A stretch of DNA of 63,659 nucleotides, filler included, from Dimargaris cristalligena (taxonomy: Eukaryota): the NCBI GenBank assembly GCA_003614675.1. It is 13 parts of 13 records of this genome, joined end to end, with 100 filler letters (N's around TTAATTAATTAA, not from the genome) between each part and the next. Parts side by side here need not be neighbours in the genome. Positions count along the whole stretch, not along the records: positions 19,700 to 24,539 come from ML003724.1; 12 more parts are not named here. One strand, given 5' to 3'. Shown in pieces: positions 4,750 through 38,600 of the stretch. The notes under the pieces were generated by a model that was given only the letters and a program-made list of their open reading frames with translations, was not told the origin of the DNA and searched no databases. The position numbers and the translations under genes were made by a program. Numbering within the stretch: the stretch's first letter is position 1; each line of letters begins with the position of its first letter.

Positions 4750-4849
4750 NNNNNNNNNNNNNNNNNNNNNNNNNNNNNNNNNNNNNNNNNNNNTTAATTA
4801 ATTAANNNNNNNNNNNNNNNNNNNNNNNNNNNNNNNNNNNNNNNNNNNN
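4750..4849. other. Artificial contig spacer (N44-TTAATTAATTAA-N44)
   Basis: Same 100-nt spacer at 9705, 14657, 19600, 24540, 29478, 34397, 39310, 44219, 49091, 53953 and 58815; the contigs between them fall steadily in length from 4855 to 4762 nt. Confidence 0.99.
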
Positions 4850-5177: not shown

Positions 5178-5309
5178 AGGGTTATATGATATAGGGTAGT
5201 CCTGTAGTACCAGGGGTGACCTATGGGAAGGTTAATATGGTGCTATAAGGCCTAATAAGGGCAGATAGTATGGTGTCCAGATTAAGGTAGATTAGAAGGG
5301 TTGACACCA
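5178..5309 (-). mobile_element. LTR family A, partial copy
   Basis: Reverse complement aligns with 33630-33760; same-strand match to 40356-40485 and 51958-52088. Confidence 0.8.
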
Positions 5310-5315
5310 TCAGTG

Positions 5316-5646
5316 ATTATATTACATATGTCAACCACTATACCTTCACCAGACTGGCTAACTCCACCTCCTTGTGGATGTCCATGAGCTGATGCAATAT
5401 AGTATATGCTGGTTACCTGGATCACACCATGTGCCTTGGCAGGATTTCTCATAATGTGTACCTGGCATCCTGGCTGCCCAGGAGGCTATACCACATCAGC
5501 CCATCTACATTATTTGCAGACTCAGAAATGATTTTATGGAAGTCATATTGCATTTGCAGGAGCAAGGCATCATGGATGCCAAAGATAATGTTGGTGGTCT
5601 TCTGGAGTGGCACCAAAGCATAGACTCCACATTCCCTGCCTACTAA
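5316..5646 (+). pseudogene. UBA4: UBA4/MOCS3 C-terminal rhodanese-domain pseudogene fragment
   Basis: Frame 1 reads TG*LHLLVDVHELMQYSICWLPGSHHVP...QPIYIICRLRNDF...KDNVGGLLEWHQSIDSTFPAY*, matching the Uba4 pattern HLLLDVR..Q..IC.LP...IYVICR.GNDS...D..GGL..W...ID..FP.Y; in-frame TAA at 5359 and 5452. Confidence 0.85.
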
Positions 5647-8450
5647 TTCATTGCTAAGGGATGCCTTTTATATGATGGCAAGTTGCACTGTGGACTAAAC
5701 ATTGTCCCTATTAATGAACCTCAACCTTGAAATACCCAATGTGAAGTAAATAGGGCTGCAAGGGAATCCCCAGGCCATATATACTAGTAACCCCAGTAAT
5801 ATTATATATATATATATGATTTCCCATTTACCTCCCTGGTGAATAACCAACATTAGTTCCAACATTCTTTGAGTAGTATATAATAGACTGACATAGTCAG
5901 TGGTTAATTCATGAGTGTGATTTACTTAATAATTATTAGTTCTGTGCAGACAGCATTGATGACCTGTGGCCATTGAAATATGGGCACCAAAATTCTCTAG
6001 TTGCAACCAGGCTTGAAGCAAGCCTGTAACTGCAGGTATACACATGGGTGTTATACTGATATCAACCCACTATGACTTCCCCCCTTCCTAGTCATAAAGG
6101 TCTTACAGTGCAACATGAGCCATTGTCCCTATAACATTACAGTGGTAGCTAGGCTGTCTACTCTGTTTTTCATAGCTCATTTCTGATGGAAGCATTATTG
6201 TTGCATGTTACCACCCTTGTCTTGGAGCGTATGTGTGGTTAGCTGATGTTATTTAGCAATGGGTTAGGGCAAGAAGGGAGCCTCTCCAATTTATAAATGG
6301 CAGCGTGGTCTGGGGTATAAGTAAAAACCATTAGGGTGGGTTGGCGGTTATCAAGGGAATATGAACATCTCATAGGCCGGATGTTACCACAGCTATGGGA
6401 GATTGAGCTGCTACGATATGCAAGATTACCAATATACCACTCCAGCAACTTGTGTACTCCTCTGTCTCTATTATCGTATACTACTTGATTACCTGAATGT
6501 ATTGCTGCAGACGGTGTCCTCAAGGGCCCTTCAAACGGTGGCTGGCATTGTGATGTCTCTCTCAGTGAAATATCCAAAAGCGCTATTTGCCTTTTTATTT
6601 TTCGACAACTACACCCTTGGTCCAGTAAAAAGGGATCCGTACTGCTTTGTAGCGATAGCTACATCATCAGTGGTCTTATCCGGTAGCCCCCTAGACGATT
6701 TAAATAACTGTTCCACTGAAAAACAAGTGGCTTTATTGGGAACTAGACGATTTGAATATTACCCTCCTTTCTTACACAACCCTGTTATCGATGCAATTCA
6801 CTTGCTTCTATTTTTAACGGATATTTCCAAAACTAAACATACTATAATAAGTCAAATTTACTATGGCATAATATAATAGTACATTTTTTCGTACATTGGC
6901 GCCAATTATTTTACATGTAAAACTTAATATTGGTCATGGTTCTAATCAATGAGAAATGTCAGAGCAAGGTTCAATGGGATCACATTGGTTTATACCGAAA
7001 TTCTCTCATTCCTCTTCACCCTCGCCCCAACCGTATAATTCATGCCTAATGCTGTGGGGTTTAATTGTATGTAGCTTGTGTTACTATACCTCATGGATCA
7101 TTCCTTGGGACTACATGTCTCATTCCAACCACCCCCTCTCACCATAGTTGACAGTGTAGATCAGGTATTTCCCAACTTCATACTCGACTATTCTCCGGTC
7201 TATATCGATCTTCTAATAAAATTGACATTCCCAATCTTCAATATTGATTATGGGAAATAATTATTACATCAATGGTTCAAAAAACAACCATACGAACTGA
7301 ACTGATAAACTTTGTCAAGAAATACGACTCTCGCGTCGAGCACCTTCTTTTGGCTTCGTCAATAAAATTATGCTGCTTTCGCTGGAATGAAGTAACAGCT
7401 AAATGACACAGACATAACCATAGCAGCCTAGAATGTTTAAATACCTAAAATAATAATAGTATAAAACACTTACTGATGGGGGGATCGTAATTATTGGAAA
7501 CATTCATTGCTGTATACTCTACAAGAGAATCTATCAAAATAGTAGGTACCGAGTAAATATTAGGCCTCGTTTTTATCAAGTTCGAACTATATTTACATTA
7601 TAGCCTTCAAATCAGCGCTGAAAATATATTGTTTGGCCTCATAAGACAACTACCCAACCCAGATGACTAAAGGGAAAAAACATACCTTGGAAATAAACCA
7701 TGCCGACCATGTGCTCAAGCCTCGAAACATCCATTATTTCGCTTAAAAAGCCAGTCTGTCTTACCAGCGTACCTGGTACATGTGTAAGGTCCTGGGAGTT
7801 CGGCAATTGGAAAAACGAGCTTAAGACTGATGAACAATTAAGTCCGTATCAGTATTTTCCTAATACTCACCGAAATGAAAATAATAATATCAATACCGCA
7901 TGGTAGGGCCCATTTAGGGATTTACGCAAGGAAATGGTGCAACAGGGATTATACATCGAGTAATGGCGACTTTGACCTTAACCACCTGCAGTGGTTACAC
8001 ATGGCGTTTCCACAACCTAGCTGGAATACTATTGTTTCCATTTATTATTACGTGGGCATAGAGGTAGACGGCAAGTCTCGGCCAAGTAGAAGTTCATGGC
8101 CTGAATTATCGAGGCGATCTACATTTGATGCTTGAAACCAAACTGGTTACACTGTTCAAGGCCCGGTACCACGTCTACCAACGTCCCCGGTAGCTTCCGT
8201 ATAATTCAACTGGCAATTTCTGATATCGAGGGGGACATCCCAACGCTCAGTTCCAGATTTAGCCCAAAGCAGCGTAATGGAATCCCTTTCCGCCCCATCG
8301 TATAAATACCAGTATTTGACCCTCCTTTACAGTCAAATCATCCACTTCTCCGCCCACAGGATTTCAGACCCCAATCACTCCTTGCCATTTCATACCCTAA
8401 ATAAGAACTCACGCCCCCGCCTCCGTCTCCCCCATCAACCACCCGCTATC

Positions 8451-9077
8451 ATGAAGCTGTTCACCATTAGTACCCTGGCTTTCGCCATGCCATCCGCCCT
8501 CGCCGGAAGCCTCCCTATCGTTCCGAATACCGACTCATTCCAATGTTCCCCCGCGGTCCCCCTTGAGATGAAATTGGCGGTAGCAGACCTTAACGGCATC
8601 CTGTGCCGCTTTGAGCCTACCCAGGCTCTCGCCATTGTAGAAAAATTTGTTCAGGAAAAGGGTTACAACGGCCAGGCTTGTCAAGGCGAAGCGGAATGCG
8701 CCCGCCGTCGAGGTGAACTAGCTGGCTACGTGGCGAGTAATCCGGAGGCCTCACTGATTTCGACCATAGCTAATAGCCCCGGTGACCATGCTAGCTCACC
8801 CATGCCGAAACTGTATCGCCGTAGCTCTGGCGAGTGTCCCATTCCCTGTGTCAATGTTTGGGATGTCGTCGAAGACCAATGCGGGTCTGGTGAATGTGTG
8901 GGAAGTCTATGTGCATTTATTTGTGTTGTTCCCGTTACCATTTTCAATATATTCATAGCAGGGCCCACTCAAGCCGTTGCGTGCATATTTACTTGTGGGG
9001 GTAGCTGTGGGGATGTCTGTGGTGATGGCATGACAATGACAATTCCCCCCAATCCAGCTACGGCGCCGGAGTCCTAG
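8451..9077 (+). CDS. Small secreted cysteine-rich protein (effector-like)
   Basis: Signal peptide MKLFTISTLAFAMPSALA, dibasic KLYRR site, C-terminal part with 10 Cys; TATAAATA at 8301; intronless. Confidence 0.75.
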   Translation: MKLFTISTLAFAMPSALAGSLPIVPNTDSFQCSPAVPLEMKLAVADLNGILCRFEPTQALAIVEKFVQEKGYNGQACQGEAECARRRGELAGYVASNPEASLISTIANSPGDHASSPMPKLYRRSSGECPIPCVNVWDVVEDQCGSGECVGSLCAFICVVPVTIFNIFIAGPTQAVACIFTCGGSCGDVCGDGMTMTIPPNPATAPES

Positions 9078-10727
9078 TATGCCACTAAGATTTAATCAGA
9101 GATCTTAAAAAGCTAACTTTGCTGGTATTAATAAAACGAATGTGCATTTCACCAAATTACTTTGTAGCAAATTTGTGGGAGTAAAATACATTTTTGCAGT
9201 AGTTAACCACTTTCTAATTACCAATAGTCGACATGGGTAGGTTTCTATAGAATTCAGTTCTGGGACATGCCCCCATCTATGCTTACTCAATAGCAATAGA
9301 GGAAGGAAGGGGGGCTAATAGTCAATGGCATTGCACAATTGGTAACAATGGACTAGGTATAAAGAAATTCACTTAAGAAACCAGATAAATATAACCTAAT
9401 AAGCTTATAGGTTGTAGCATGTAGATGGTGTTTATATGTACATACAATGCCAGGGAGTTATTATAGAAACCATACCTGAGGTACTTGTAAGAGGTCACTG
9501 ATATCTGGAAAACTATGCTGGGAACAGATGTTGGAATACTAAGGATGTAAAGAAAATAAAACTAGAAGTAAGGGAAGAAAGCAGCTGGAGGACAGTAGGT
9601 GCCTCTAGGTAGTTAGTTTTATTGAACTGTGATTTTGATGGGGTGAAACATAAGTGGCTAACATAAATGATCTCATGATAGCAGAATAAACTAACATAAT
9701 TGGGNNNNNNNNNNNNNNNNNNNNNNNNNNNNNNNNNNNNNNNNNNNNTTAATTAATTAANNNNNNNNNNNNNNNNNNNNNNNNNNNNNNNNNNNNNNNN
9801 NNNNCGCATTGGCAATGGGTTTTTCAATTTGACCCGGCTTGTGGCCACCATATGGGCGACAAGGGCCCTGTGCGCTGTGCGAGTAGAATTTATTTACTAT
9901 GAGTTCCAGTGTAAATGTGAATTATAGTGCTTATCCCTGGGCAGCACTTGGTGTTCCCCTGTCATTAGTGCAATACACCATGTATTGGTGATTATACGGA
10001 TGGGGTGAGTAGGGTTATATATTCGACAGATTAGAGATGTCGCTATCTAGACAAACAATGTAATGTCTCTGTTTATATTCTAATCAGTGTCTAGCTGTGG
10101 TTTATAGGCTCTTAACGGTTCGTTGACTGTTCCACAAGCGCCGTCCATGTTTAATGCCAGTTTTTCCCATATTAACTACTTTATTATTATGCTGGTTTGA
10201 GAGGGAGGATGATGATGTTAGGCTTGCAATCTATTTTTCAGCAATATATTAGTGCTGTAACTTACGAAAGTGGGTGTATTTTTATTGGGGCCTACCACTA
10301 TTGTGTCTGTATTGCTGCTCTAGGGACAATATCCCTTTAGTCCCCTTACGTTTGTGCCGGTTGCGGGGAATAGCCAACTCGGCTACCACTATGGGCCGAG
10401 TTTCCGTTGTACAAATAAGGTACCCACTAATAGTAGCGCTAATGTGCGCCAACATCCTTCCCCATTCAAAATAGCCCGAACCACATTAGCCTATACCCAC
10501 ATTTTTCCCCTACTCCCCTCTTTTCTTTTTTTACCCTCATATTGAATTTCTTTCCCTGCTTACTTCTCCTTTTGTAATTGCCCTTAGTTTTAGTGTTTAT
10601 TTTCGCCCAATGTTTACCAACTGATTTGCTCCCCCCCCTCCACATACACAAAGACACACACACATACGCACTCCTTCGGCCACTATCCACCTCCCCTCCA
10701 TTTCGGGTCCATAAACCATTCGCCACT

Positions 10728-19699: not shown

Positions 19700-20048
19700 T
19701 CCACCTTATTGTTAGCCATTATGTAGTTCCCCCTTCAGGACCTCCCCTTTGGAGGCACCCTCAGCGTATATATAACCGGGCTCCCCTTTGGGACCGGTTC
19801 ACCTCAGCTTATTCTTACCCCCGTAGTTTACCCCAATAAACTCTATATACGCTCACCCCCTAGTACTGACCAGTAAGTGTGCATCTAGTGCACGGACCTC
19901 ACCTACGTCCTACGCTTGCTTTATTCGGTTAGTCTTGTCGCCATCCCTAACACTAGTAGCCCGCTTGGCCGTGTCCAACGCCCCGCCTACTGTTAGAAGC
20001 CTACCCCCGAGACTCTTGACGGACTAAGAGTGGTTAACTTGGGCGACA
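19700..20048 (+). mobile_element. LTR family A, least mutated (CpG-rich) copy, cut by contig edge
   Basis: TATATATAA, AATAAA and terminal ...GGGCGACA; homologous to 33880-34213 and to the reverse copies. Confidence 0.85.
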
Positions 20049-20073
20049 GTCGGTAAATATTCTGGTAGTAATT

Positions 20074-20225
20074 TATGTAGGTGAAATGTGACCCAGCGGT
20101 AAAAAGTTGTAAGTATTACGTGTATGGAACAATAGGTGGGATATCTATTATTATTTTATACCAGTGGTCTTAACCCTATCTAATAGATTTTTCACATCAC
20201 TGCCTGGTTGAACCTTGCCTATATA
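20074..20225 (-). mobile_element. ~150-bp MITE-like element
   Basis: Imperfect terminal inverted repeats (TAGGTGAAAT...AACCTTGCCTA) in TA context; reverse complement aligns with 27513-27656. Confidence 0.75.
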
Positions 20226-20410
20226 AACACAGCATATATCCTATCCTTGGTAGTCATTACTTTTTGTTCTACATGCTAGGTATGCATTTCCAAAACCCTA
20301 CCCTTACCAGCATTTTCATATAGTATCTACCTACATGGTGATCTGTCTCTCTCCATATCTTTCTCTCTCCAAAACTTTATCCCCCTCCCTCACTTCCACC
20401 CTTGCCCAAT

Positions 20411-20618
20411 GGCCATATTCAGGCCTTCACCTGCACCAATGCAGGCAATTATCCTACTTAGTCACCCCCAACAGGGTGACTCACAGTATCCCTCATTTAT
20501 TTTGAGGGATTACATAGTCCACGACCCCCGGGCTGAGCTCACAGGTGCCGACCGGGGTCAAGCAAATCAACCAGCCTCCAGCTAAATCAAAGCTGGGAGG
20601 TGCCTGCCAAAGTGCAGG
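20411..20618. ncRNA. Candidate structured RNA element of seven hairpins, copy 1, family unknown
   Basis: Seven consecutive stem-loops; about 19 differences in 208 nt from copy 2, mostly in loops, linkers or CpG sites. Confidence 0.5.
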
Positions 20619-22485
20619 TTAAATGTATTATTATTGACTAATAAATATTTTTTTATAGTTTTGTAGATTTCGTTTTTAGTATTTTACTGGATGTAGCGCC
20701 CTTTTTATAATAATGTTTTCAGTTCAATCAATAAACCTCATCTATATTCTGATGTGTGTTTATTTAGAATTAAGTCTAGGATAAAGGTCGGTAACAAGGC
20801 AACTGGGCTGAATTATTACATACACCTACCATAATGCCACCATGGAGGTGTGAGTAATGGGGGGGGGGGGGCTGTGGACATATGTCTTTGTTTGTTTCAA
20901 TGTAAATAATATAATTGGTTTACTGAAATAGCTGCACTAACAATTTAACCACTGAATAAGGCTATACATGTTAGTCTGGATGGTATATTCAGATTGTTGT
21001 AGACTGACCGTGCTCTCAATTAGTCACATTTAATCTGGCGACAATAACTGTAAATACACTCTCCATCAATCTGTGAACATCTTCATTTTGACCTTTGGGT
21101 ATAATAATAGTTTGGTAGTCCATTGAACACCACTTAGTTGATTTTACAACCCCACTGGTTTTCCAATATTACATCTATCCCGGTGGCTAAGGTAAACACA
21201 AGTTCCCTACCGGTGGCTGACACTAGCCTTGCCAATTATGACAAGGCAGTATCCTCACCAGAGAACAATTTAGCCAAGAATGCAACTAACCAGGGGGCCG
21301 ACCATTCAGACACCCCAGTCATTGAAGAATGATTAACTGGGCTGCATTTGGTGGGGAAACAATTACATACAGTTCTCTGGGTTACAAGGCTAGCATTTCA
21401 ACCTCTACGTGATAGATTTTATCTGACTATAAAGGGTACTCGGTCAGGGAACTGATATCCTCTTAGTTTACTAGCGTTTATGCCACTCATACCCTCCATT
21501 ACTTATTTCATACTATTCATTTCTAATAAAAACCACTCCTTTCATCTGCTAATATATCATAAGCATTTGGTATGCCTACCTCCGATTGACAAAAGATCCT
21601 AATGACTCTTACACTCATTTGTGCTGGTTCCCTTTTGAAGGTAAGTACCGTTATTTCTAGCTAGGAATCCATTCAATTTAAGGGAGGTCTAGTATGTATA
21701 TGAGAGAGGTTTCAATCTGGCTGTATACAATGAAAGATATGCTAGATGGGGCAGGTGTTGCTGAATAACAAATAATAATACCACATGTATTAAACTGTAC
21801 CTAAATATTACTCCGGGATACCACCAACCTATTATACCAATTTTATGAAAGTATGGTACAACTACCCAACTATAAACCATCCTGAACTGTAATTTCCACC
21901 CCCAATCGCCAGGGGCACCGCCACTAAAGTGCAATATTAATATATAAATGAAAACGGGCTTCAATTTATATGACTTATCCTAATAGTAACTTGAATGGTC
22001 ATCAGTAATTCCCGGCCTGTCTATTGTTATTATCCAGTACCGAAGGACAGGAAGCTTGGTGCTTCTCATTAGGGGCGCAGCATTTGACCATGGCTACGGC
22101 TATGCTACGACTAGACTGTGAACATTTGCTCGATGGTTAAGCAGGTCCGGTGGGGTTTAACGGGAGGCATCGGCAATGTATTACAATGACTGACAGGTGG
22201 ATTCATCTTCCCCAAATGAGGGCTCCAGCGGGATACAATAAGGAGCCTAACTGGAATGGCCGGTCTGATCCTCCTCGGGTGAAACCAGGCCTGGAAGTTC
22301 AGAGAACGTTGCAGCATTGTTGTCAAGGCAGTCCTATTTTTTTAGAGAAGCCTCTTGCCAAAAGCCTCGGTCATAACCCTGTGTCCCAAGATTAGGCGCC
22401 GCCGGTAAAAATAACTCATACCGTTAAACCAGATAATAACGCCTAACCATAGTATAATAGCTATTGTAATGCAGATTCGTCAGCT

Positions 22486-22635
22486 GAACATGGCAGAAGT
22501 TCATCCAGGCTGTATAACGAATAATCCATTTGATGAGGTAAATATTACTGGTCAAAAGTTATTATCCCACATATTATCCTATACACATGTTGTGTAAAAT
22601 CTTATACAGTTGGGTTGAAGTTCACCCACATGTTC
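22486..22635 (+). mobile_element. MITE copy
   Basis: GAACATGGCAGAAGTTCATCCAGGCTGTATAA...TTATACAGTTGGGTTGAAGTTCACCCACATGTTC terminal inverted repeats. Confidence 0.8.
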
Positions 22636-22835
22636 AGGAAGACATTCAAATAAGACAAAAAAGGGAATACTGGGGCTTGGTTGCCATTCCATGGCCGATT
22701 CCTAATATGCACCGCCTGATTAAGGTATTGTATCCCGATTAATTATTTCGGAATAGCCGCATGATTGAACCCCACTATGAAGAGATCGCTAGGTTCCTGC
22801 ATGGTATCTGGTTGGTAAATTTTTTGGTAGTAATT

Positions 22836-22987
22836 CATATAGGTGAAATGTGACCCAGCAGTATAAGGCTGTAAGTATTACGTGTATGGAACAATAGGTG
22901 GGATATCTATTATTATTTTTTACCAGTGGTCTTAACCCTATCTAATAGATTTTTTACACCGCTGCCTGGTTGAACCTCGCCTATATA
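22836..22987 (-). mobile_element. MITE copy within the duplicated unit
   Basis: Near-identical to 20074-20225. Confidence 0.75.
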
Positions 22988-23173
22988 AATACAGCTGAAT
23001 TCTATCATCGGTAGCCATCACTTATCGTTCTACATGTTAGGTATGCTTTTCCAAACACACTGATTCCTACCAACATTCTCTCATATCATCTACCTACACG
23101 GTGATCTGTTCCCCTCCCTCTTTTTCTCTCGTCATAACTTTGTCCCCCTCCCTCACTTCCACCCTTGCCCAAT

Positions 23174-23381
23174 GGCCATATTCAGGCCTTCGCCTGCACC
23201 AATGCAGGCAAGTATTCTATTTAGTCACCCCCAACAGGGTGACTTGCAGTATCCCTCGTTTATTTTGAGGGATTACATAGTCCATGACTCCCGGGCTGAG
23301 CTCACAGGTGCAGACCGGGGTCAAGCAAATCAACCAGCCTCCCCTTAGCCCGAATCTGGGAGGTGCCTGCCGAAGTGCAGG
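23174..23381. ncRNA. Candidate structured RNA element of seven hairpins, copy 2
   Basis: Same length and same stems as copy 1. Confidence 0.5.
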
Positions 23382-23750
23382 TTAAATGATTGGTGCTTCC
23401 ATAATAAATATTCATATTGTATTTATATTCATATATATTTGAATGAGGCTGGATGTAGCACCCATTTTATATTCTGATTTCTATACATTTTATAAACTGT
23501 TTCCAGAGTCCAGTATATTTTTCTTGAGAACCACGTCTAGGATAAAGACCAGTAATAAGCTGATTGGGTTGTATTGTTATGTAAAGATGTTAATGCTGCT
23601 GAGGTGATATGAAGAATGGGGTGGGGGCTGTAGAAGAATGTCTTTGTTTGCTTTGATGGAAATTACTATATTGGCCTGTTATTACAGCTGAAACGCCCAA
23701 TTAAACTATATATGGAAGTGGGGGTGGTATCTTAGGATTTTTATAGGTCT

Positions 23751-24125
23751 TGTAACGATATAGAGGTTTAGAGAGAACCCCACTTCGTTCAACGTCAATG
23801 TTGGTGTTAGGACGAAGATTTATTCAAAGTATAATAAAATAATAGGTAAAAAAGGAAATAAATGGAAGAACTAAAGCGGTAATGATGTAGAAATGTTGCG
23901 GGCTATGATGATTGTTCTTATTCAACGTCCACCGAGGACGTCCTTTTTAAAGCATTGACATGGTTGTTGGGGCTGGGATGTAAACGTGGCGTGTTGTAGT
24001 AAAGCCAGGATACCTTGGACGAATGTATGGTAGGAATGACTCAAACTACTGAGTGGTAATTTGAGAGGTGTGGAGGGACATTTGATAATATAATGTGCAT
24101 TAGACAAGGGACGTAAAACGTCACA
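23751..24125 (-). mobile_element. Solo LTR (375 bp) with 5-bp target-site duplication
   Basis: TGTAACG...CGTCACA termini flanked on both sides by GGTCT; absent from the paralogous site in copy 1 (~21000). Confidence 0.92.
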
Positions 24126-24455
24126 GGTCTATTGTATTTTTGATTAGTCTTATTAAAACTAGTTCCAGTAACTGCGCATACTCTATGCATCAACCTGTAC
24201 ACATCTTCTTTCTGACTTCCTAGTAATATTATAAGACTGCCATACCTTTAAAAAATTTCTCTTATCTGTACCTTCCCATTGGTTTTCCACTGTCTACCTT
24301 ACTAACGGGCATGCATTTATAGGGTTTTGATATGAGGTAGCAGGTTTTACATGGATATATTTATAACCCTATGGTTTTCTTTATTAATAGTTTTTGGCCT
24401 ATCAATATATTAAATACAATATAACCTGTAGATGTACCTCTCTCTGACTTATTGC

Positions 24456-24539
24456 ATATGGGAGAAGTTCATCCAAGTTGTATAACGAAAAATCCATTAG
24501 ATTCGGCCAATATTACTAGTTAAAAATACATTTCCCATA
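24456..24539 (+). mobile_element. MITE copy cut by contig end
   Basis: Almost identical to 27513-27594. Confidence 0.8.
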
Positions 24540-24639: not shown

Positions 24640-25127
24640 GGGGGGTGAGTGTATATAGGGTTTATTGAGATAAACTAAGGGGTCAGAATAAGCTGAACCA
24701 TTAACCAGTCCCCATGGGGGGCCTGGTTATATATATGCAGGGGACTACTCCAAGGGAGGTCCCGAGGGGAAACTACATAACTAAGATAATAATAGGGAGG
24801 GCTGGGTGGTCCTCATATGAGCAGAGGCTTCCATGGGAACTGGAAGACACTAAGATCACCTAGGAGTGAGTAGTGCAAACTCCGGGGGGGTCTAGCCAGT
24901 AAGATGATATATATGATGTCCGGCCCCATTAGGACAGGGGGTACAATATGGCACTATACAGCCTGCTATGATGGCAATCATTAGCAGACAGATTAGGTCG
25001 GATTAGGAGGATAGACAATCATATAGTACCAGGTGTGATCATGGAATAGCTAATATGGTGCAATAGGACCTAATATAGTTAAATATCTAAGCTGGTCAGA
25101 TTAAGGTGTATTTAATGGGCTAACAAC
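24640..25127 (-). mobile_element. LTR family A copy (partial, diverged)
   Basis: GGGGGTGAGTGTATATAGGGTTTATTG...GAATAAGCTGA...GGAGGTCC matches 40082-40210. Confidence 0.75.
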
Positions 25128-27126: not shown

Positions 27127-28603
27127 ATGCTACTTAAAGTAATACCTCTTTTTTATGCATACGGCTCCGTTCAACAACGAATTTAATAATGCCCAAATCG
27201 GTCAAGTTGCCCAACCTATCTAACTTTCATGTTATACTGCAATTCTATTACGACTTTCCTCTAGTCCCTCGTCGGAGGCCTCATTGGTGCCGTATTAGCC
27301 ACCGGCCTTGTTGTTACACGCAAAGAGTTTGTCACCACTCAACTCTCAAACCAACAAATCGACGACCTCAAGATCTACGCCAGGTAAGAGCAACCACAGA
27401 GGTGCCTGTCAAGAAGTTTTACACATGTTTCAAGCGGGGATTGTTATTTGATCGACCAGCACGTATTTACACGTAGCGCCACTAGAATACTTCATTGTTC
27501 TACCTATTGTGAATATGGGAGAAATTCATCCAAGCCGTATAACGAAAAATCCATTAGATTCGGCCAATATTATAGTTAAAAATACATTTCCCATATATTT
27601 TCCCATACACGTATAATGTAAACCCTTATATAGCTGGGCCGAATTTCACCCATATATAATACAGAATAACCAATACCACTTTTATTTTCTTGCCTATAGA
27701 CTTGCGGCGATTTCGTACGATAACATTACCTCGTGGGACTGCGATGAATGTGCTAAAGTCGCTGATTCTACTTTGGTGGGCAATTTCCAGTCCAAGAACA
27801 AGCGCGCTGTAGGCTATGTGGCCATAAACAATGATATCAAGTCGGTTAGTATGGTTTTCCGCGGCACGGATAACATTAACCAGTATTTGACCGACCTGCA
27901 AATCAAGAAGAAGGATTGGCCCGACTGGGCTAAGGACAGTGCCGTCCACACCGGCTTTTTAGAGGCCTATGAGTCCGTGAGTGATTCCTTGTATACACAG
28001 GTTACCGGCCAGCTTGCAAAGCACCCTAGTCATAATCTAACTATATCGGGCCACTCCCTGGGGGCAGGTAGGTTGAACTACGCTATTATCTTATTAGACT
28101 ACCTATTAGCTTATGATCCGATTATTTTATTAGGCACTTAGTTGTTGATTGATAGTTACTGAAATGGATATGCTTTTTTATTTCAACTCTCTAATTACTT
28201 TCTGGTTCCCCTCACTCATAAACGTGCTTTTCGTTCAGCACTTGCCTCCCTGGCCGCGGTCGACTTTGTCCACCGCAACAAAACCCTGGCTAATATTATG
28301 CGAGTGGTGACGTTCGGGAAACCACGGGTTGGTAACCAGGAGTACGCTGATCATTACAACTCCCTCGACCTCGACAGCCTTTTCGTGGTTAACAAAGACG
28401 ACATTGTACCTCATTTGCCACCCAAAACTCTGGGATACCGCCATGAAAACGGCGAAAACTGGATAAAGCCGGACAGCAACAGCAACACAACCATTTCATG
28501 CCCCCAGGTAGACAACGATGCTAACCCCAACTGCTCGGCCAGCGTGAAGTTCCGAAACCTCAGTAGAAAGGATCACCACTGGGCTTGGAATGTTGAGATG
28601 TAA
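27127..28603 (+). CDS. Secreted class 3 lipase; exons 27127-27138, 27265-27383, 27700-28067, 28239-28603
   Basis: VFRGT, VHTGF, GHSLGA nucleophile elbow, TFGKPRVGN, DIVPHLPP, GYRH, C-terminal DH; GT-AG introns keep the frame. Confidence 0.93.
27513..27656 (+). mobile_element. MITE copy inside lipase intron 2
   Basis: ATATGGGAGAAATTCATCCAAGCCGTATAA...TATATAGCTGGGCCGAATTTCACCCATAT terminal inverted repeats. Confidence 0.85.
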
Positions 28604-29583
28604 ATTTGTGTAAATGGCATTTATCATTATTCACATTGTGTCTTACGGCTAGGGGCTAGTGTTGATATAGTATATTATTTTTAGAAGTGCATTGATTTAG
28701 TAAAATATATCCAGTGTTGGGTAGACGTTTGTAAAAGTGCATGTCGCTCTGCTATAAAATACAATTTCATCAATTGAGTATCAATGTTATAGGATACAGC
28801 GTATAAATAATATAACCCCTATTCGTTTTTGGGGAAACCTCAGTTGGGATATCAAGGGTAATGGGAGCGCTACGTCAAAGTGAGAAATCATGAATTGCAA
28901 TCATTAAACCAAGGGATCCCCGGAGCCCCTGACACCTCACGTGACTCCCCCCTCTCCTGATCCCCAGTCCAACGTAGTGCGTGCGATAGCCGACTCAACT
29001 GAGCCAGAGAAACCAACCAAGGACGTATAAAACCGGTTTATCCAACCGGAAAGTCTGGGTTCGACATTAACGAGTAAATATAAATTGTGATTTTATTGAA
29101 TTGTCTGCTCACCCTCCCCACTCGGAACTCCACCTACGGTAACACTCCCTTTGACCCCACCTGGTCGTATTTGGTTATAGAATATGCACCATACATTCTG
29201 GTAAGCAGCTAATCTATGTGTTTGGAGCGTAGTTGGGGAGGAGACCAGCGTACGTTGGCTTTCTGTACCTTTAGGGTACCATTCCTTACTATTTGGTGGG
29301 GCACTGCTGTATGAATGGCCCATTTGAAAATACCGCTTAATATCAATTGGCTGGGCCTTTCTGAAACATTGGGCTAAACATATTACCCAGCCCTCTGAAC
29401 GTGGATGGAGGATATTGCAACTGAGGGAGGTCACCATCACCCACCGGCAGGAGGCCGATCCTCCCCACAGTACCCCTNNNNNNNNNNNNNNNNNNNNNNN
29501 NNNNNNNNNNNNNNNNNNNNNTTAATTAATTAANNNNNNNNNNNNNNNNNNNNNNNNNNNNNNNNNNNNNNNNNNNNCTGTGG

Positions 29584-29665
29584 GGGCAGATGGCCGAGTG
29601 GTCTAAGGCGCTACGTTAAGGCCGTAGTCTCTCCGGAGGCGTGGGTTCGAATCCCACTCTGCTCA
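29584..29665 (+). tRNA. tRNA-Leu(AAG)
   Basis: Acceptor GGGCAGA/TCTGCTC-A, D arm TGGCCGAGTGGTCTAAGGCG, anticodon arm CTACG-TTAAGGC-CGTAG, long variable arm, T arm GTGGG-TTCGAAT-CCCAC, followed by a T6 Pol III terminator. Confidence 0.97.
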
Positions 29666-29949
29666 CGTTTTTTGATTATTTTGTTTGATGACAACCTTTT
29701 CCTTAAATGATATGCACTTCAGTTGAACGATTATGAGAATAGCAGCATCTCAATATATAGGGTCTCTAGTTGTTGTTATGCCGGCGAATAAAGAAATCCC
29801 AGTTTTTATTAATAATATATCAAGAGGAAATAATCAGAGCCTACATTGTCTGGTGGCTTTACTGACTTAACTCATGGAAGTAGTTGAAGGGATTTTATCG
29901 AGTTGGTGTGTATGACTGTATAGAGCAGGTTAGTGAGAATGTAAAATAG

Positions 29950-30081
29950 CTATGGGAGATGTTCGACCAGGCTGTATAACGAAAATACCATCCAATTAGG
30001 AAAACATTACTTAATAAAAACCATTTTCCCATACACATATAGTTCAAAACCCTATACAGCTGCACTGAATTTCACCCCTAT
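29950..30081 (+). mobile_element. MITE copy
   Basis: TATGGGAGATGTTCGACCAGGCTGTATAACGAAAA...TATACAGCTGCACTGAATTTCACCCCTA. Confidence 0.8.
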
Positions 30082-33000
30082 TGGTTTTATCGGTTACGAT
30101 CATTTCCGAAATTATCTTTATAAGTGGCATATTCATTACCATCGACCCCAACAAAAGTATTCAGCGGCACCGCTAAAACTATGGGAAGAAAAGTCAGCCA
30201 CAGGCAAAATCCAGATCGATAGTAGATGTCGTTGGTGGTGAAGGACCCGTCGCTGGTGACAACGTGGTCACCTTAGACTTATAATTTCAGGTTTTGTAGT
30301 TCGTCTTTTAAGAAAAAAAACCATCGATTTTGCTCGTAAGACTGGTGCTAATAGCCCTAGGTGCGATCTCAAACAGAAGCCCAAGCCCGATTATGACACC
30401 TATTTTTTATAGCTACCATTCCTAAAGATTACATTGAAATAATATATATATAAAATATTCGAGGATATATTATTTAAGGGAATTATTTGTATATATCTTG
30501 GAGAAGGAAATAGTAAAAGTAAAGCAGAAACTAACCACGATTTCTCGTATACGCAAAGATTGATTTGGATCTAGGAGGTATATTCGACTTTCTCATATAG
30601 AAAAATCAATACCAATTATATTCACTGTTTAATCTCTCCTTTAGATACATTGTCGTCATAGTCTTCCCGCCGATTTCGCCTCCCAGTGGACACCGCCTTT
30701 ACGGGATAATCAAGAGATCAGGGCCTACTTCTCCCCATTTGGCAACATCACGCCAATTCTCCCTGACATAACTCTCTGTCACACACAGGGTTATCATACA
30801 AATATAGTTTACAGATGACTACAAAGCCTAAGAAGCTTCGAACAGAAAACCTCACTAATATAAACACAGGCCGATTAACTTTATGGTGTAGTTATTGGTT
30901 CTAGACCAATTTCGATCTATACAGGGAAGAGTATCATAATTAGGGACCACATAGCCCGAACACAGTGGATCATAGTCGACTGCCAAGTAGGTATACCTTA
31001 GAGTCATGATCAAACTGACAGTGCCAGCGGCCCAGTTATACATTTAGAAAAATGGCCTGGAATTTGACCAAAGCTGAAGTTGAACAGTGAGAATCACGAG
31101 TTTGCTGTTGGTGGCCAGTTTCTATAGGTATACCCACTATTATTCTTAAGATATCATTACACAATGTATAATTTTGGGGATAATGAAAGAATGGTGCCAA
31201 GAGCCGTCGAGTCAGGCGGATTTCCCCTAATATGGAATGTCTGTCTATAAATGGGCAAATGGCAATATGCAGTAATATTCATATTGCATAGCAACATGAA
31301 TCATTAATGGCAGAAGGCAGCTTTTGACATTCCGAAACAGTCCAAAATCCAGCAATGGCATTAAATCCTGCTGAATAGGGCTGTCTGTGGTTATATCTCG
31401 AAGGAACAACAACAATAACTTTATACATGGTCATTTTATCTTGATGAAGGGGGGGGGGGAGAATAGGAGGAATGTGACCAACAAGAAAATATCCATAAAT
31501 GAAAGAAACAAAGTTTGGAAGGGGGGAGGGGGGATAGTATGGTGTGCCTTGTTTTACATGAATCTAAGTTATTAGGACAATGTCAGTGGTACTCTTGACC
31601 GCTCTGGGCATGGGTGTGGTACCTATCAGGATAACGGGGTGCATCTACACACGGGGGAGGGTGCCCTCATTTATGAAATACTCATCTCTTTGGAATAAAC
31701 AGGCCCAGGACATCAGCACTAGTAAAGGTGCTAACCATGTAGCCTTCATATTGGGGCCTAGTTAGAAGGGCGAGCCCATTGTCAGGTCTGATCAGGAATA
31801 GACTGTACTATTGTTACTTAGTGTGCAAACTAAATCACATTTATTAATCCTACTGCTGTATTCCCTTTGTTGGTAAAGGGGATTCAGCATCAGAAGCAGA
31901 GCTATGGACAATAATGACTATTTGGGAGCGTAATGTCTGCCTTCCATATGGCCCAGGTCGGTGGCAAAGCCATGAGTTGACCTTCCCATATGAATTGTCC
32001 ACTGTAGTTTCTGCAGTGGGAATTTTTCGTTGGTTTTTGTTACACTGTTAGGATTAAGCGCCCATTTCCCTGGACTGGGTGATGTGTTTTCATCAGGTAT
32101 ATAACCTGTGGTATTTCCACCTCCTAAGTCTTTAACGACGAACACCATACTGCTGCAAATTCATAATAATATGGCATTTGTATCCTATTTTATATCCAAG
32201 AAGGGTCGGCCTAGTAGGGATTATCCTACTGCCGACCCGAGAGCACCAATTGTCAAGCCCATCAAGTGGGCATTCGATAAGGTAAGTATTGTATTTATTT
32301 TATTTATACTGTGAAATCTAGTTGGGCTGGCAATTGTATTTATACTCCTTCATTGATATATAATGATTTGAAGTATTATAAAAAACGCCGATTTCCCCTA
32401 TTTCATTATCAGACTTGACAATGGTTGCAGCAATAAAATTGTGGCGCCTCCATTCAATGCAAGTATAATGCCCGACTTTCATTATGCTGAATTATTAATG
32501 AATGACTTCCAAATGATATTCCAAGAAATCATTTTGGACTTACTGATTACTATGTAAGCCGATTTCTAACTATGTGCTTCTATGTTTGTTCCCTCTTTCC
32601 TATTATGATATCAATCTAGCTCAAGAAGATTTTTGGGCCACACAAATAAATGGCCCAACTGTGTCATTGGGATTCCCTTTGTCCCACCCCCATCCCTCTG
32701 CCTGTGACTTCACCAAGTCATCATGGCCAAGTTACCAGAGCCCACCCCCAACTACTCATCTTGACTTTTGGCCCAACCATGGTAGCTGTAACTACCCTGG
32801 GATATCCACTGCTTGTTACAGTTCTTTCTCACCGGCCCATACCCTGGCGTACTCTATAACACACCTTTTCTCCATCAGTTGATCAACCACTATCCTAGAG
32901 CTTGTTGGTACTGAACCACCAAGGGTTGCCTGGTAATAACCAGACATCCCATGAAACCGGGATTTAACTAGAAAACCACCAGCACCCACTCTTCCCATGG

Positions 33001-33629
33001 ATACCAAACCCCTAGATAATACCAAAAGAGTGCCGGCCAAGTGTAACCATATCACACTAACACTTGGCATATTGCTAAGAAGCCCTACTTGGCCCCTTAA
33101 GGGCACTGCAACCATGACCTCCTCTTAGAACACTAGCCTGATGGGCTAAATACCTACCACCTATGGCTAATCCTAATAGTAGTACTATCAGGTTCATTAA
33201 TTATTCTAGATTTAAAAAGAACCATTGACCTACACTAATAGAGGCCTTCAGTTGACTATAATTTTGCTTGCTTCCTATTACAATACAGTTACTGGTAATA
33301 TGTCACATACCCTGTTCACTAATTCAACTAATAAATAATTTTTCCTTAGTTACTTATACTCATATATACTCACTACCAACAACCTCATAGTTATAAGTAT
33401 TGGCCACCCAATATAAATTGTTGCAATAAACTTTCTCATGGCATCCTCAAAATATTTCTACAGCTAATTTTATAGCAATAAATCTTAATCCTAAAATATG
33501 GTCTTAATTTCTGAAGCAAAATATGCCCCCTTAGCCCTGTCTACCAGGAAATCTGCCACCATCTAAGCAGAAAAAGTACAAGAGTAGTAATGGTAGAAGG
33601 TGCCAACTAGACCAATATTGGGCTTAGTG

Positions 33630-34213
33630 GACCATCAGGCCTTCTAATCTAACTTAATCTGGACACAATACTGTCTATCCCTATTAGGCCTTATAGTGCC
33701 ATATAACCTTCCCATGGTTACCCCTGGTACTATGGGATCACCCTATATCATATAACCATTCCCCTTCCAGATTCCTTATTTTGCACTAATCACTCCAGTG
33801 CTAATCCTAAGACTCTTCTAGCTACTATCAGATTTTACCAAGAGCTTATGGCCATCTGGTTAGCCTATTTATCTTACCCTAGTCTTAGTAGTACCCTTTT
33901 CTGGCGACCTCCCTCTGGAGTTTTCCCTGTGTATATATAACTGGGCCACATTTTGACTGATTTGAGCCCTTAGCTTATTATTACCCCCTGTTTACCCCTA
34001 TAAACTCTATATATACTCACCACCCTTGTATCAACTAGTAAGTGTGCTTACTACACATCCCTGGCTTATACCTATATCTTATAGCCTTTATTAGTTAGTA
34101 CCATGTCCCCCACCTAGTACTAAGACCTGCTTGGCCAAGTCCAAGCCCCATCTGCCATTAAAAGCCTATCCTCAGGGCTCTTAATGGACTAAGAGTGGTT
34201 AACCTGGGTAACA
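33630..34213 (+). mobile_element. LTR family A, near full-length solo copy (~585 bp)
   Basis: Ends ...GGACTAAGAGTGGTTAACCTGGGTAACA, aligning with 20048; no internal retroelement ORF follows. Confidence 0.85.
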
Positions 34214-35643
34214 TTGACTTTACAAGGTTCATTTAAATTTCTTATTTATACTAACAAATAGTACCCAGCAAATCCACTATTTAGACAATCCTGTTACTGG
34301 GCTATCACTCTGGCAGATATGTTAATGTTGGAAACATCTTCTCACATTTGCCAGCCGCTCTTAGGGCTTTCAGCTGAGGGGGCTGCTATTATAATGNNNN
34401 NNNNNNNNNNNNNNNNNNNNNNNNNNNNNNNNNNNNNNNNTTAATTAATTAANNNNNNNNNNNNNNNNNNNNNNNNNNNNNNNNNNNNNNNNNNNNTCGC
34501 CGTTACCAAAGGTGCAAATACGTATGGGGATGGCATGGAGTAGAAATAGTGATGCACCACCACCACACGGGCGGCGGTGGTCCTTCTACTATTAAGATTC
34601 TTTTCGATCATTAGTTTCTTGTGGTTCCCCGGTATGATTAGGACAGTTCCGAAAATTACGGCCTAAAGAGGCGGTGGTTTTACCCACTTCTTCAATTATT
34701 AATCACCCAATGTGCTGGGTCGCAGAATTTTTGGGGTTGATTTTTCGTTTGGCAGGGGGCTTCTAGGGAGGGATCCCATATCTTTCCTTGGTCAGTTTAT
34801 TATAATATAAAAAAAGAATTGTGCTCTTTTTCACGCGTGTTGCTTAGAATGATAACCGCTGGTATTCATTTAACGGGGTTCATCCCCGAATTTCAAAAGC
34901 TCTGCATGATAGCAGACCGCAAGTTGAAGATTGGCAACGTGTTTTTGGGTGTCACACAATCCTCGGTGGCGGGAGACACGTATTCTCCCAAACTTTGACC
35001 GGACAATGGTCGCAACGACCCCTGTTGAAAAAAAACGGGAAGTTAATATGAAAATAGACAGTCAGCCAGTTGGTTGCAATGGCATCATTCTGACAGAGTG
35101 CCATTACTGAACGCCTTGGATGATCCGCTGCTGACTGGGCCATTTCAACAGGTAATAGGTGTTGCATTTTATATCGGGCTGTGGGAGCTATGCGGTGTCC
35201 CAAATTAAATATCTAGCTAGGACAGTTATCCACGTACGTACAGGGCGTACTTAGTATGGACTGTTTACTCAGGAGAACATAAACCTTGAAAGTGCTTATG
35301 TTGCTGGGAGGCGCTTGTGAGGTGGCCTATTCCAGTGAATGGGGCTATGGGAAACAATGTTGTTTGAAGTATTTTTAGATTAAGGGTTGGTGGCTCTGCG
35401 GTTGGTTTCTCCTTCCGATGCAATGATAAAAAAATTCCCCTAAAACCAAATTTGATTGTCTCATCTTTAAAAAGTATATATAGTTGCCAAAAGGGCGGAC
35501 AGAGGAGCATTCTTTAAGCCTTGGCCCTATTCCTCCTCTCTCAGATTGAATACCCGCTACTCCTATATTCTGATAACATTCGCCTATCGATATTTCCACG
35601 CCCAATCACTTACTTCCTTTCATCCAACGTTTACAGTTCACCC

Positions 35644-38600
35644 ATGATGCTTAATCAGTCCTCTGTTGCCTCCACCGCGGCCTTGCGCTTACCTGTTGTC
35701 CCAGTGGACCACCAGCCCTCCATCAATTTACCCCTCGGCAAGCCCCGGGTCAATCTATCGGGCTATTCCGCCTGGGCCAGCGGTCATCTATTCCCTGCTA
35801 CGAACGAGTTCGTGCGAAACGACTTTGAACTCACTCATCGATTGGCCACGGCCATCATCCTAAGCAGGTACTATCGCCAGCCCGCGGTCGCCTTTGCCCA
35901 CTGGCGTGGTCAGTTCGGGCTACACACTCTCATTGAGCAGTCCCGTGAACCACTTCAGTTGGTTCTCGCCCAGGTGGACCCCGATGTCCCCATCTCCACC
36001 GCCATCCTGCACGACCATGCGCATGGTCATCCCCCTGATTCGCCTGGTCCAACAGTGGAGGTTCTGCTCCTCACTGATTTAGGTGACTCTAGTGTGACCC
36101 ACCCCATGTCCGAATCCAGTAGCAGTCACAGTCAGCCCAAGGAGGTTGAAGTCGATCCGCATATAGCGGATCTATTGGCCGGAAGCACTGCCCGCCTAAT
36201 TATAAGTTGTTCGTTAAACCAGGCGGGGTTCGCCCAGATCACGGTAACCTATGCCCGGGCTCAATACCGCGATTCAGCTGTAGCAGAATTCACTAGCCAG
36301 TTCCGAACTATCTGTTCGGCCGTCGCCCGGGCTCTGCAAGGTGGTCAGTCCACCCCTGTGCGCGATATTGCGTGGGTTAGTTACCAGGAACGAGCCCGCC
36401 TCTTGGATTTTTCCCAAATGACCAAACCAATCCAGGGAAACTATCGACCGTTCCACAATCTATTCAGCGACCGTGCCCAACGCTTTTCCAACCATCTTGC
36501 TTTGGTCCACGGCTGTGAGGAGTGGACCTACGCTCAGGTGGATTACGCCAGTTCGGAACTGGCCCGCATTCTAGTAGACGAATATGGGGCCCGTCCCGAA
36601 GTTCGGTTCGCACTGTTCATTCCTAAGTCAGTCGCCTATAATCTGGCTATTTTAGCTGTGTTCAAGTCAGGCGCCGCCTATGTACCTATCGACCCCGACT
36701 ATCCCGCTGATCGAATCCAGTTTGTCCTAGATGACAGCGGCGCTTCACTGGTAATTGCTGCGGAATCAGTTCTAGGTCGTTTACCAGACCAGCTCAAGTT
36801 GCCCACTGCGACCGTAGACCTATTTGCCCAACACCCAACTTTTAAGGAGCCTTCGGACTTCCTACCGTTCCCTTCATCACCCAACCATTTGGCATACGTT
36901 ATCTACACATCTGGTACTACTGGTCGTCCCAAAGGTGTCTTGGTCGAGCACCGGGGAGTGGCCAATATATCTACTGACCAGTTTTTAGGGGATGTCTATG
37001 GCCCAGGCCAGCGAGTCTACCAGACTGGATCCGTTGCCTTTGACGGCGTACTTGTGAGCTCCTTACGGGCTCTCTGCACCGGTAGTACGGTTGTGGTCGC
37101 AACTGACAACATGCTGGAAGACCTGCAGAATGTAAATATGGGGTTTCTAATGACCTCATTTCTATCCCGCTTGAGCCCCCAGGACGCTCCCGAAATGAAG
37201 GTTTTTTCATTTGGCGGAGAATCCTTCCTGCCGGAGCAGCTAGCTCGGTGGGCATCACATTGTGTTTTGGCCAACCATTATGGGCCGACGGAAACCACCG
37301 TTTACTGTAACGTAGCACTGGTTGGGGCCGAGGACGACATCACTTTCGGCAAACCTATCCACAACGTCTTCAATTTGGTCGTGGATGATGATCTGCAGTT
37401 AGTGCCAGTCGGGGCTCTTGGTGAGTTACTCATTGGTGGCGTGGGTGTGGCTCGGGGCTATCAAAACCTACCGGAGCTCACCGCTAAAAAGTTTATTCCC
37501 AACCCACTTGGCGAGGGCCGGGTATATCGCACCGGTGATTATGTCCGGTGGCTCCCTAACGGAACGCTCGAATTTATTGGTCGCATCGACAGCCAAGTCA
37601 AATTACGCGGGTACCGGATCGAGATTGAGGAGATCGAGAACGTGGCGAGCCAATTCCCCGGACTTAAGCAGTGTACCGCGGCCGTGGTTCAGGATACTTT
37701 AATTATTTACGCCAGCCCTGAAAACATCGACCCGACCGACCTATTAGATTGCTTAAGGGATCGACTCGCTAAGCAAATGGTACCTAAGCTGGTGGTACCG
37801 ATTGCGGACTTTCCATATACAGCCTCGGGTAAACTGGACCGCAAGTCTCTACCTTCAGTCGACCACTTGCTATCAAGTCAGACACTGTATTCCCCCACTA
37901 GATCCAATATCAACACTCCTCAAACTGATACAGAAGAAGAGCTTCGCCGAGTCTGGGGTCAGATTCTCCAGCTGGACCCCGACCGCATCAGTACCACTGA
38001 CCACTTTTTCCGCATCGGTGGTGACTCTATTTCGGCGATTTTACTGGTGTCCAAGGGACAACAGTTGGGGTATCAACTAACCGTGCCATTGATCTACCAG
38101 TACCCCGAGCTTCGCCTATTGGCTCAGAATACTGAAAAGATTACTGGCCACCAGGCCAATGTGAACGCCGCCTACCAGGAACAGGTTCAGGGTGAGGTGG
38201 CTTTGACACCTATCCAGCGCTGGTTTAGTGCCATTGGTCTTCGTAATCCCCACCACTTTAACCAGTCCTTTACCCTGAAGGTCAGTCCCAAAGTCAATTT
38301 ATCATTGGCGGCTCTTTCCGACGCCCTTGTGGCCCTGGCCAACCATCACGATATTCTCCGGGCCCGATTCCTGCCAGGTGATGGCAACCGGCCATGGGAC
38401 CAGACGATACCTACAGCCAGAGCCGTCCCTGCCGATTTTTTATTGTTGGAAGAAACGGTTTTGTCCGAAAACTATGCCAACTTTATCCTGCGGGTCCAGT
38501 CCGGCCTTAACCTTACTACAGGCCCTGTGTTGGCAGTTGCACTGATTCGTGACCCGGACAGTACGTCCCAATCCCGCCTGTTCATTACCATACACCACAT

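Follow-up and report, generated by a model that had tools for sequence, protein, structure and literature searches.

A 63,659-base stretch of DNA from the fungus Dimargaris cristalligena (GenBank assembly GCA_003614675.1), called the window below, contains two copies of a block of seven short hairpins, 208 nucleotides (nt) long, both of which lie on record ML003724.1 (the fifth of the contigs that make up the window, hereafter contig 5). The block is real, duplicated and unusually foldable, it has a sharp right edge, and it sits inside a mosaic duplication in non-coding fungal DNA that is depleted of CpG and rich in miniature inverted-repeat transposable elements (MITEs). An earlier note on this DNA had proposed a constrained structured RNA, either a novel non-coding RNA (ncRNA) or the structured end of a mobile element. 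The structural part of that proposal stands, in that the structure is real and the fold is spared beyond chance, but the claim of constraint is weakened by the lack of any compensatory base pair and by a MITE block nearby that is equally conserved. Between the two options of the note, the context favors a mobile or repeated element over a novel ncRNA gene. The interpretation preferred here, which is tentative and held with somewhat less than even confidence, is that the block is a module of non-coding DNA, rich in palindromes, within a low-copy repeat that probably derives from a transposon, and that conversion keeps its copies similar; on this view it is not a free-standing RNA gene.

The description of the duplicated element in the earlier note was accurate, with all seven stems and their positions confirmed (Table 1). 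Gap-free alignment of the two copies (A and B) gives 19 differences in 208 positions, as the note had estimated, and eight of the 19 do cluster at hairpin 6, within 20580-20592 in its distal part, where four base pairs of copy A are lost in copy B. Ten of the 11 differences outside this cluster fall in loops or linkers, the single stem change being a C to T at 20526 that turns a G-C pair into G-U, and six of the 19 lie at CpG sites, in keeping with the note's attribution of most of the differences outside the cluster to linker changes or CpG decay. Hairpin 7 repeats hairpin 2 in inverted form (20426-20447 and 20601-20622 in copy A, 22 nt and 77% complementary; 18 nt and 78% complementary in copy B), and the two form the strongest long-range inverted repeat in both copies. 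The conserved block reaches past this repeat on both sides and ends sharply at 20625/6, an edge 5-8 nt outside it. A search for a longer inverted repeat around the block gave only chance-level pairs, which were not common to both copies.

The strength of the fold sets the block apart from most of its surroundings. The minimum free energy (MFE) is -90.1 kcal/mol in both copies, despite 20 differences between the sequences folded (the 19 in the block plus position 20626). Shuffled sequences have mean MFEs of -60.4 (copy A) and -66.0 (copy B), giving z scores of -6.4 and -5.8, and none of 200 shuffles folds as well; the minus strand of copy A has a fold z of -6.0. After correction for G+C content, the block ranks second of the 2980 overlapping 220-nt windows that cover the 63.6 kb. 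Both the MFE and the consensus folds have hairpins 2 and 7 pairing with each other, thereby closing a multi-branch domain around hairpins 3-6. The 13 contigs have no general excess of perfect hairpins (stems of at least 7 bp), except for contig 9, and the foldability of the block is therefore a local feature rather than a property of the genome.

The block belongs to a direct duplication whose two copies are separated by about 1.8 kb; the sequences between and beyond the duplicated segments are non-homologous, apart from inserted MITE copies. In each duplicated segment, a complete, reversed copy of the MITE2 family is followed by some 150 nt of spacer and then by a CT tract, the hairpin block and a tail rich in A+T, and the identity between copies A and B differs from part to part. 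The hairpin block has changed significantly less than the spacer (p = 3e-4) or the tail (p = 2e-12; Fisher tests). The MITE block, however, differs at 15 of 185 positions as against 19 of 208 in the hairpin block (8.1% versus 9.1%, p = 0.86), and the spacer, with 35 differences in 147 positions, is more diverged than the MITE block as well (p = 9e-5). Because the MITE block is equally conserved, the high identity of the hairpin block is not by itself proof of RNA constraint. The surroundings described in the earlier note were all recovered: the downstream flank is far more diverged than the block (59-67% versus 91% identity), conserved islands lie to the right (GGATGTAGC.CCC at about 20690 and TCTAGGATAAAG at 20776), the pyrimidine tract is present on the left, with its last 27 nt inside a 47-nt identical run, and the MITE-derived TATA-like sequence TATATAAA (20220-20227) stands exactly at the end of the MITE2 copy. 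The AATAAA at 20640 could be a poly(A) signal, or AT-rich DNA may simply have produced it by chance. Another conserved island of the tail holds a homopolymer of 13 G's in copy A (20859-20871), which corresponds to GGGGTGGGGG in copy B (about 23619-23628).

Table 1. Features of contig 5 and related repeats, with positions counted along the whole window; identities compare copy A with copy B
Feature	Positions	Strand	Remarks
Duplication, copy A	20049..21010	+	direct duplication, ~960 bp
Duplication, copy B	22811..23770	+	offset 2762-2763 nt from copy A
MITE block	20049-20233		identity 92%
Spacer	20234-20381		identity 74-78%
Pyrimidine (CT) tract	20340..20408	+	copy B counterpart 23103-23171
Segment before hairpin block	20382-20410		identity 100%; within 47-nt identical run 20382-20428
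Hairpin block, copy A	20411..20618	.	seven short hairpins; identity 91%
Hairpin block, copy B	23174..23381	.	fold as in copy A; distal stem of hairpin 6 (AGCU/AGCU in copy A) gone
Hairpin 1, GGCC/GGCC	20411-14/20422-25		copy A
Hairpin 2, CCTGCA/TGCAGG	20430-35/20440-45		copy A
Hairpin 3, AGTCACCC/GGGTGACT	20460-67/20474-81		copy A
Hairpin 4, ATCCCTC(A)/(T)GAGGGAT	20488-95/20503-10		copy A
Hairpin 5, GACCCC.GG/CCGGGGTC	20523-31/20552-59		copy A
Hairpin 6, CCTCC/GGAGG	20575-79/20596-600		copy A
Hairpin 7, CCTGC/GCAGG	20603-07/20614-18		copy A
Right edge of conserved block	20625..20626	.	identity falls from 91% to 59%
Tail	20627-21000		identity 59-67%
AATAAA	20640..20645	+	copy B 23403-23408; in 11-nt conserved island TAATAAATATT of the diverged flank
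58-codon open reading frame, copy A	20409..20585	+	ATG to TAA; spans the block
58-codon open reading frame, copy B	23172..23348	+	ATG to TAG at same codon; 5 of 58 residues differ
MITE2 copy in duplication copy A	20070..20227	-	counterpart in copy B about 22832-22989
Complete MITE2 copy between duplicated segments	22490..22627	+	
MITE2 copy cut by contig end	24453-24539		
Further MITE2 members	27510-27662, 29951-30077		
MITE1-family repeat	19719..20048	.	adjoins duplication copy A on the left
MITE1 relatives	24641-24780 (-), 33888-34208, 39901-40139 (-)		

Several tests ask how far the differences between the copies respect the fold. Covariation, which the earlier note had put forward as a check, did not appear: none of the 53 pairs of the two-copy consensus fold is compensatory, in a comparison of two sequences at 91% identity that has very low power. 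The two stem changes in the joint structure are A-U to G-U, as read on the plus strand. In the consensus structure, only paired columns with two of the 20 differences are affected (P = 2e-4), a test biased by a structure derived from both copies; with the MFE structure of copy A alone (116 of 222 positions paired), eight of the 20 fall in paired positions (P = 0.18). When the 20 changes were placed at random on the plus strand, the observed energy was reached in 3.9% of 700 placements from A to B and in 0 of 700 from B to A, and the corresponding values for the minus strand are 4.6% of 500 and 0 of 500. The sparing of the fold is thus equal on both strands and therefore fits DNA palindromes as well as RNA. 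The earlier note had assigned the element to neither strand, and this symmetry bears out its caution.

Searches for relatives were likewise negative. As the earlier note had supposed, the block matches no known RNA family: Rfam 15, run over the whole window at gathering thresholds, gave only a 5S rRNA and one tRNA, both elsewhere, while at E <= 10 contig 5 gave one chance hit outside the block and the 371 nt around the block gave only HOTTIP_3, with 7.7 bits against a threshold of 50. Three RNA classes were considered by eye and set aside, namely H/ACA or C/D snoRNAs (the hairpins are too short and have neither a pocket nor the boxes), RNA polymerase III transcripts (no T-run after the block is common to both copies) and telomerase RNA (the only candidate is the 8-nt TAACCCTA, located inside a MITE copy). 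An unfiltered search of the window with a covariance model of the two copies recovered nothing but those copies themselves, the next-best matches being their reverse strands (14.4 and 13.3 bits) and then noise, and BLAST of the window revealed no third copy of the block. A 22-nt pattern from hairpin 3 had no match in metagenome contigs or in prokaryote genome contigs, a 30-nt block pattern had none in the prokaryote genome contigs, and two block patterns had none in viral contigs. One exact match of 25 nt, between 20403-20427 of the window and positions 1610-1634 (minus strand) of metagenome contig L001, falls in the region of a bacterial DNA topoisomerase IB gene that encodes the N-terminal domain; it is rare for that length, but there is no similarity beyond the 25 nt and the match was taken as chance.

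The setting of the block is repeat DNA. The window consists of 13 contigs of 4.7-4.9 kb each, in descending order of length and with G+C contents of 38% to 58%, joined by N44-TTAATTAATTAA-N44 linkers at 12 joints (the first at 4750-4849 and 9705-9804). Since the window is a chain of linker-joined pieces, contigs that stand side by side in it are not genomic neighbors; the earlier note mentioned neither this construction nor the 58-codon open reading frame (ORF) discussed below. Contig 5 (19700-24539) has 40.8% G+C, holds both copies of the hairpin block, and contains no recognizable coding capacity, with no Pfam family found at E <= 0.001 in its six read-through frames. The MITE2 family consists of elements of 140-160 bp whose ends are TA-rich and carry inverted repeats of about 22 nt, whereas MITE1 is a dispersed repeat of about 330 bp that is rich in short G+C hairpins; relatives of these two families of contig 5 also occur elsewhere in the window, on contigs 6, 7 and 9. 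Genes of a eukaryotic, fungus-like character are found on the G+C-rich contigs (a Sec7 domain protein, an SPB4-type helicase, a non-ribosomal peptide synthetase (NRPS) module, a flavin monooxygenase and an ArAE_2_N transporter); of the A+T-rich contigs, one has a 5S rRNA gene and another a tRNA-Leu(AAG) gene.

The CpG content provides further information about this setting. The observed/expected ratio is 0.50 for contig 5 and 0.27 and 0.39 for the two hairpin blocks; it is 0.40-0.53 on the contigs at 4850-9704, 19700-24539, 29578-34396 and 49191-53952, as compared with 0.83-0.90 on the gene-bearing contigs 1, 4, 8, 12 and 13 and 0.78 on gene-bearing contig 3, with GpC normal everywhere. CpG depletion with normal GpC, together with the six of 19 differences at CpG sites, makes up the pattern of a methylated repeat, which agrees with the CpG decay of the earlier note. 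The base composition suggests that the depletion in the A+T-rich contigs is due to CpG methylation and decay of repeat DNA, and not to repeat-induced point mutation.

Six public sequencing runs from three studies contain contig 5 (share of words 0.77-0.94), none of them recorded as RNA. Contigs from the runs were aligned to 19700-22800 at 80% likeness; they are short, and their depth is no measure of copy number. Runs X1 and X5 contribute roughly 2000 aligned contig records, most of which fall on MITE1, and run X7 has only the MITEs in common. In organism B (run X6) the locus is near-identical, with 0-1 differing letters on five pieces and with parts that have no cover, and this organism therefore adds no comparative information. 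The block in run X5 differs at 20453 and 20485, both of them linker positions. Some run contigs join the right part of the block to sequence of the internal region (22217 to 20547, side 44; 22716 to 20589, side 37), although these joints are weak, and one contig each of X1 and X6 has unlike sequence directly after 20626. These arrangements weakly suggest further, partly deleted copies or alleles, and they lend slight support to 20625/6 as a genuine boundary.

These results may be accommodated best by the interpretation stated at the outset. The locus would be a methylated, MITE-invaded part of the fungal genome, and the hairpins, as palindromes at the level of DNA, would go back to the end or leader of a non-autonomous element. 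Such palindromes could fold in single-stranded DNA or in a transcript of the element, and might be recognized by the replication or transposition machinery of that element. The higher identity of the hairpin and MITE blocks relative to the spacer and tail would then reflect gene conversion or unequal mutation rates, not selection on a host function. The duplicated segment holds a MITE insertion, the TATA-like sequence, the CT tract, the hairpin block and the AT-rich tail, and hairpins 2 and 7 bracket the other hairpins much as terminal repeats would. The stems are perfect and show no compensatory change, and a fold spared alike on both strands is to be expected of DNA palindromes. The strongest argument against RNA constraint is that a plain MITE insertion 150 nt away is equally conserved and that the sparing is strand-symmetrical.

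Several points weigh against this interpretation, the strongest argument for function being the conservation mosaic together with the sparing of the fold. A mosaic in which a promoter-like block, a body and an AATAAA are conserved while spacer and tail diverge is what a small gene under selection would be expected to produce, and to explain it otherwise requires conversion in two separate tracts or mutation rates that differ without explanation. The fold is kept better than by random placement of the changes, and the 58-codon ORF is intact in both copies, its stop being kept by a change of TAA to TAG. Furthermore, no transposon hallmark was found on contig 5 in the form of a target-site duplication, TG..CA ends, a primer-binding site or a transposase or reverse transcriptase remnant. 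No further copy of the block was found within the window, and the evidence for additional copies consists of short run contigs at 80% likeness with weak joints.

The functional alternative that comes closest to the earlier proposal is a lineage-specific gene for a structured ncRNA of about 245 nt, present as two tandem paralogues, with a multi-branch domain closed by hairpins 2 and 7. Transcription would begin within the CT tract or after it, on the downstream side of the MITE-derived TATA box, and would stop near the conserved AATAAA. Judged from the sequence such a gene is unlikely, though more probable than the other alternatives considered here. It would account for the fold z scores and the rank of the block among the windows, for an MFE that stays equal where random placement seldom or never reaches it, for the A-U to G-U character of the two joint-structure stem changes on the plus strand, for the better conservation of the block relative to spacer and tail, and for a 47-nt identical run across the putative start, with the TATA upstream and the AATAAA downstream. 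The same gene would have to be reconciled with the absence of compensatory pairs, with the eight differences in paired positions of the copy A structure, with a minus-strand result that equals the plus-strand result, with the loss of four hairpin 6 pairs in copy B, with the equal conservation of the MITE block, with a context of CpG-depleted repeat DNA, and with the lack of any relative in Rfam, the pattern scans or the window. A fuller statement, a shade less probable still, is that of a new lineage-restricted RNA of about 245 nt, with a MITE-donated promoter and two tandem copies kept by selection; in its boldest version the RNA would be a stand-alone scaffold, with its guide beside 20625/6 and no nuclease gene nearby. 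Fanzor nucleases with omega-type RNAs have been found in fungi and in transposons, according to PMC10432273 and PMC3627910. By analogy, the block could be an omega-RNA-type guide scaffold (TnpB/Fanzor) left at the end of a non-autonomous element, in which the structured body would end at 20625/6 and the adjoining variable sequence would be the guide. The resemblance to the omega RNA treated in PMC10432273 lies in an RNA-sized (210-245 nt) multi-hairpin block in a fungus, with a sharp 3' edge beside sequence that differs among copy A, copy B and a third contig. However, the six frames of the contig contain no TnpB/Fanzor or RuvC-like ORF, copies A and B have flanks that are related despite their divergence, which means that the copies do not derive from separate insertions, and no element ends or adjacent motif could be defined. 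This identity is highly improbable.

Two further alternatives place the block in a gene or in a larger element. The first is a small protein-coding gene of 58 codons, tandemly duplicated, whose hairpins would be incidental or would regulate its mRNA; on the sequence evidence this seems quite improbable. Both copies have an intact ORF that starts and stops at the same codons, and a complete ORF of at least 58 amino acids (aa) in any frame occurs in only 5.7% of dinucleotide shuffles of the 245-nt stretch, yet the frame is kept in 39% of random placements of the same changes. Third positions hold six of the 10 differences found in codons 1-57 (P = 0.077), or seven of 11 with the stop codon included (P = 0.039), and five are silent and five residue-changing. 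The G+C content at codon positions 1 and 2 is similar to that of the genes of the window, but at position 3 it is 0.50, below all seven genes checked (0.57-0.76). The CT tract that precedes the ATG counts in favor of the gene, since such tracts are typical of fungal core promoters. Against it stand a fold z of -6, which is unusual in coding sequence, the closure of the other five frames in both copies, conservation that continues 33 nt past the stop, and the lack of a homologue: none was found among proteins of 31-102 aa, and a language-model search with the product, which has no cysteine and no signal peptide, gave no usable match. The sole HMMER match among 1.84 billion representatives, P0001 (a cysteine-rich repeat protein of 2044 aa), was rejected as a sum of weak matches and received no support from BLASTP at E <= 100; inspection by eye revealed no convincing splice donors to extend the ORF. 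The second alternative, less probable than the first, is that the 960-bp segments are the long terminal repeats (LTRs) of an old non-autonomous LTR retroelement, with the hairpin block as an R/leader region that would fold in its RNA and would have the TATA box (U3) on one side and the poly(A) signal on the other. The hairpins of retroviral TAR and poly(A) are examples of such structured R/leader regions. Contig 5 has direct repeats of about 960 bp, spaced by 2762 nt, around some 1.8 kb of unrelated sequence and a hairpin-rich stretch between TATA and AATAAA, and run contigs join the internal region to the block in the order expected of deleted unit copies. The differences from known LTRs are substantial: there are no TG..CA ends, since in both copies homology sets in at GGTAAAT and fades out with no CA end; past copy A there is no convincing primer-binding site, but only the 7-nt TGGCGAC about 40 nt beyond its end; no polypurine tract directly precedes copy B at 22811; six-frame comparison with Pfam finds no gag, reverse transcriptase or integrase remnant on the contig; and the divergence of the repeats is strongly uneven, from 8% to 36%, where neutral LTR decay should be even. 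There is also a small probability, comparable to that of the protein-coding gene, that the block is something other than the preferred transposon-derived module or any of these four alternatives.

Comparison with other palindromic DNA helps to place the block. It has in common with MITEs and foldback elements its small size, its non-coding character and its hairpins, its location in AT-rich, CpG-depleted DNA among genuine MITEs, and an inverted repeat (hairpins 2 and 7) that brackets the core. It differs from them in being low-copy, with only two copies in 63.6 kb, in consisting of seven different short stems in series instead of one long terminal-repeat stem, and in having its conserved edge at 20625/6 beyond the inverted repeat. 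No direct repeat that could be a target-site duplication was found in the flanks read (GGCCTTCA directly before CCTGCAC on the left, TTAAATGT directly after GTGCAGG on the right). The PstI palindromes of Neurospora are clusters of GC-rich palindromes in fungal mitochondrial DNA, and the block resembles them in its short G+C-rich palindromes with CTGCA cores in A+T-rich DNA; contig 5, however, has no mitochondrial gene and a G+C content of 41%, and it shares MITEs with contigs that bear the 5S rRNA and tRNA-Leu(AAG) genes. Short perfect inverted repeats can also be made and kept by template switching during replication, as described in PMC8794818 and PMC8604942, and the perfect stems, the absence of compensatory substitutions and the clustering of eight changes within 13 nt are reminiscent of this process. 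Template switching is nonetheless not supported as the source of the cluster, for which no template was found: the best nearby reverse-complement match covers 8 of 13 positions, and there is no exact complement of at least 7 nt.

Other parts of the window also stand out for their folding or their genes. The contig at 39410-44218, which also bears the 5S rRNA gene (43894-44012, minus strand), has 15 perfect hairpins with stems of at least 7 bp, as against 2.9 +/- 1.9 in shuffles, and their stems are mostly A+T-rich. A second hairpin-rich patch, at 31850-32260 on another A+T-rich contig, has no sequence relation to the block; it contains stems of 15 bp (at 87%), 9 bp and 8 bp, the last with a nested 6-bp stem, and, once G+C content is corrected for, ranks with the windows that fold best. 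First place on this corrected scale goes to a coding stretch at 2121-2400 (minus strand) inside the Sec7-domain ORF (z -3.3 on the window's own scale). The NRPS module (35521-39357, plus strand) is a single, uninterrupted one with adenylation, carrier and condensation domains, and runs into the contig end.

Among known kinds, the block behaves most like the structured end or leader of a non-autonomous element, and it is best regarded as an as yet unclassified member of palindrome-rich repeat DNA and not as a new kind of system. It carries a caution of wider use, in that a segment of repeat-rich DNA can be more alike between paralogous copies than the sequence around it without being under constraint. 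The CpG pattern suggests that repeats are methylated in this genome, which would be useful to its annotators. Should the block instead prove to be a transcribed and selected RNA, it would represent a fungal RNA class without a relative in Rfam, born from a promoter supplied by a MITE, and thus a case of repeats creating a gene.

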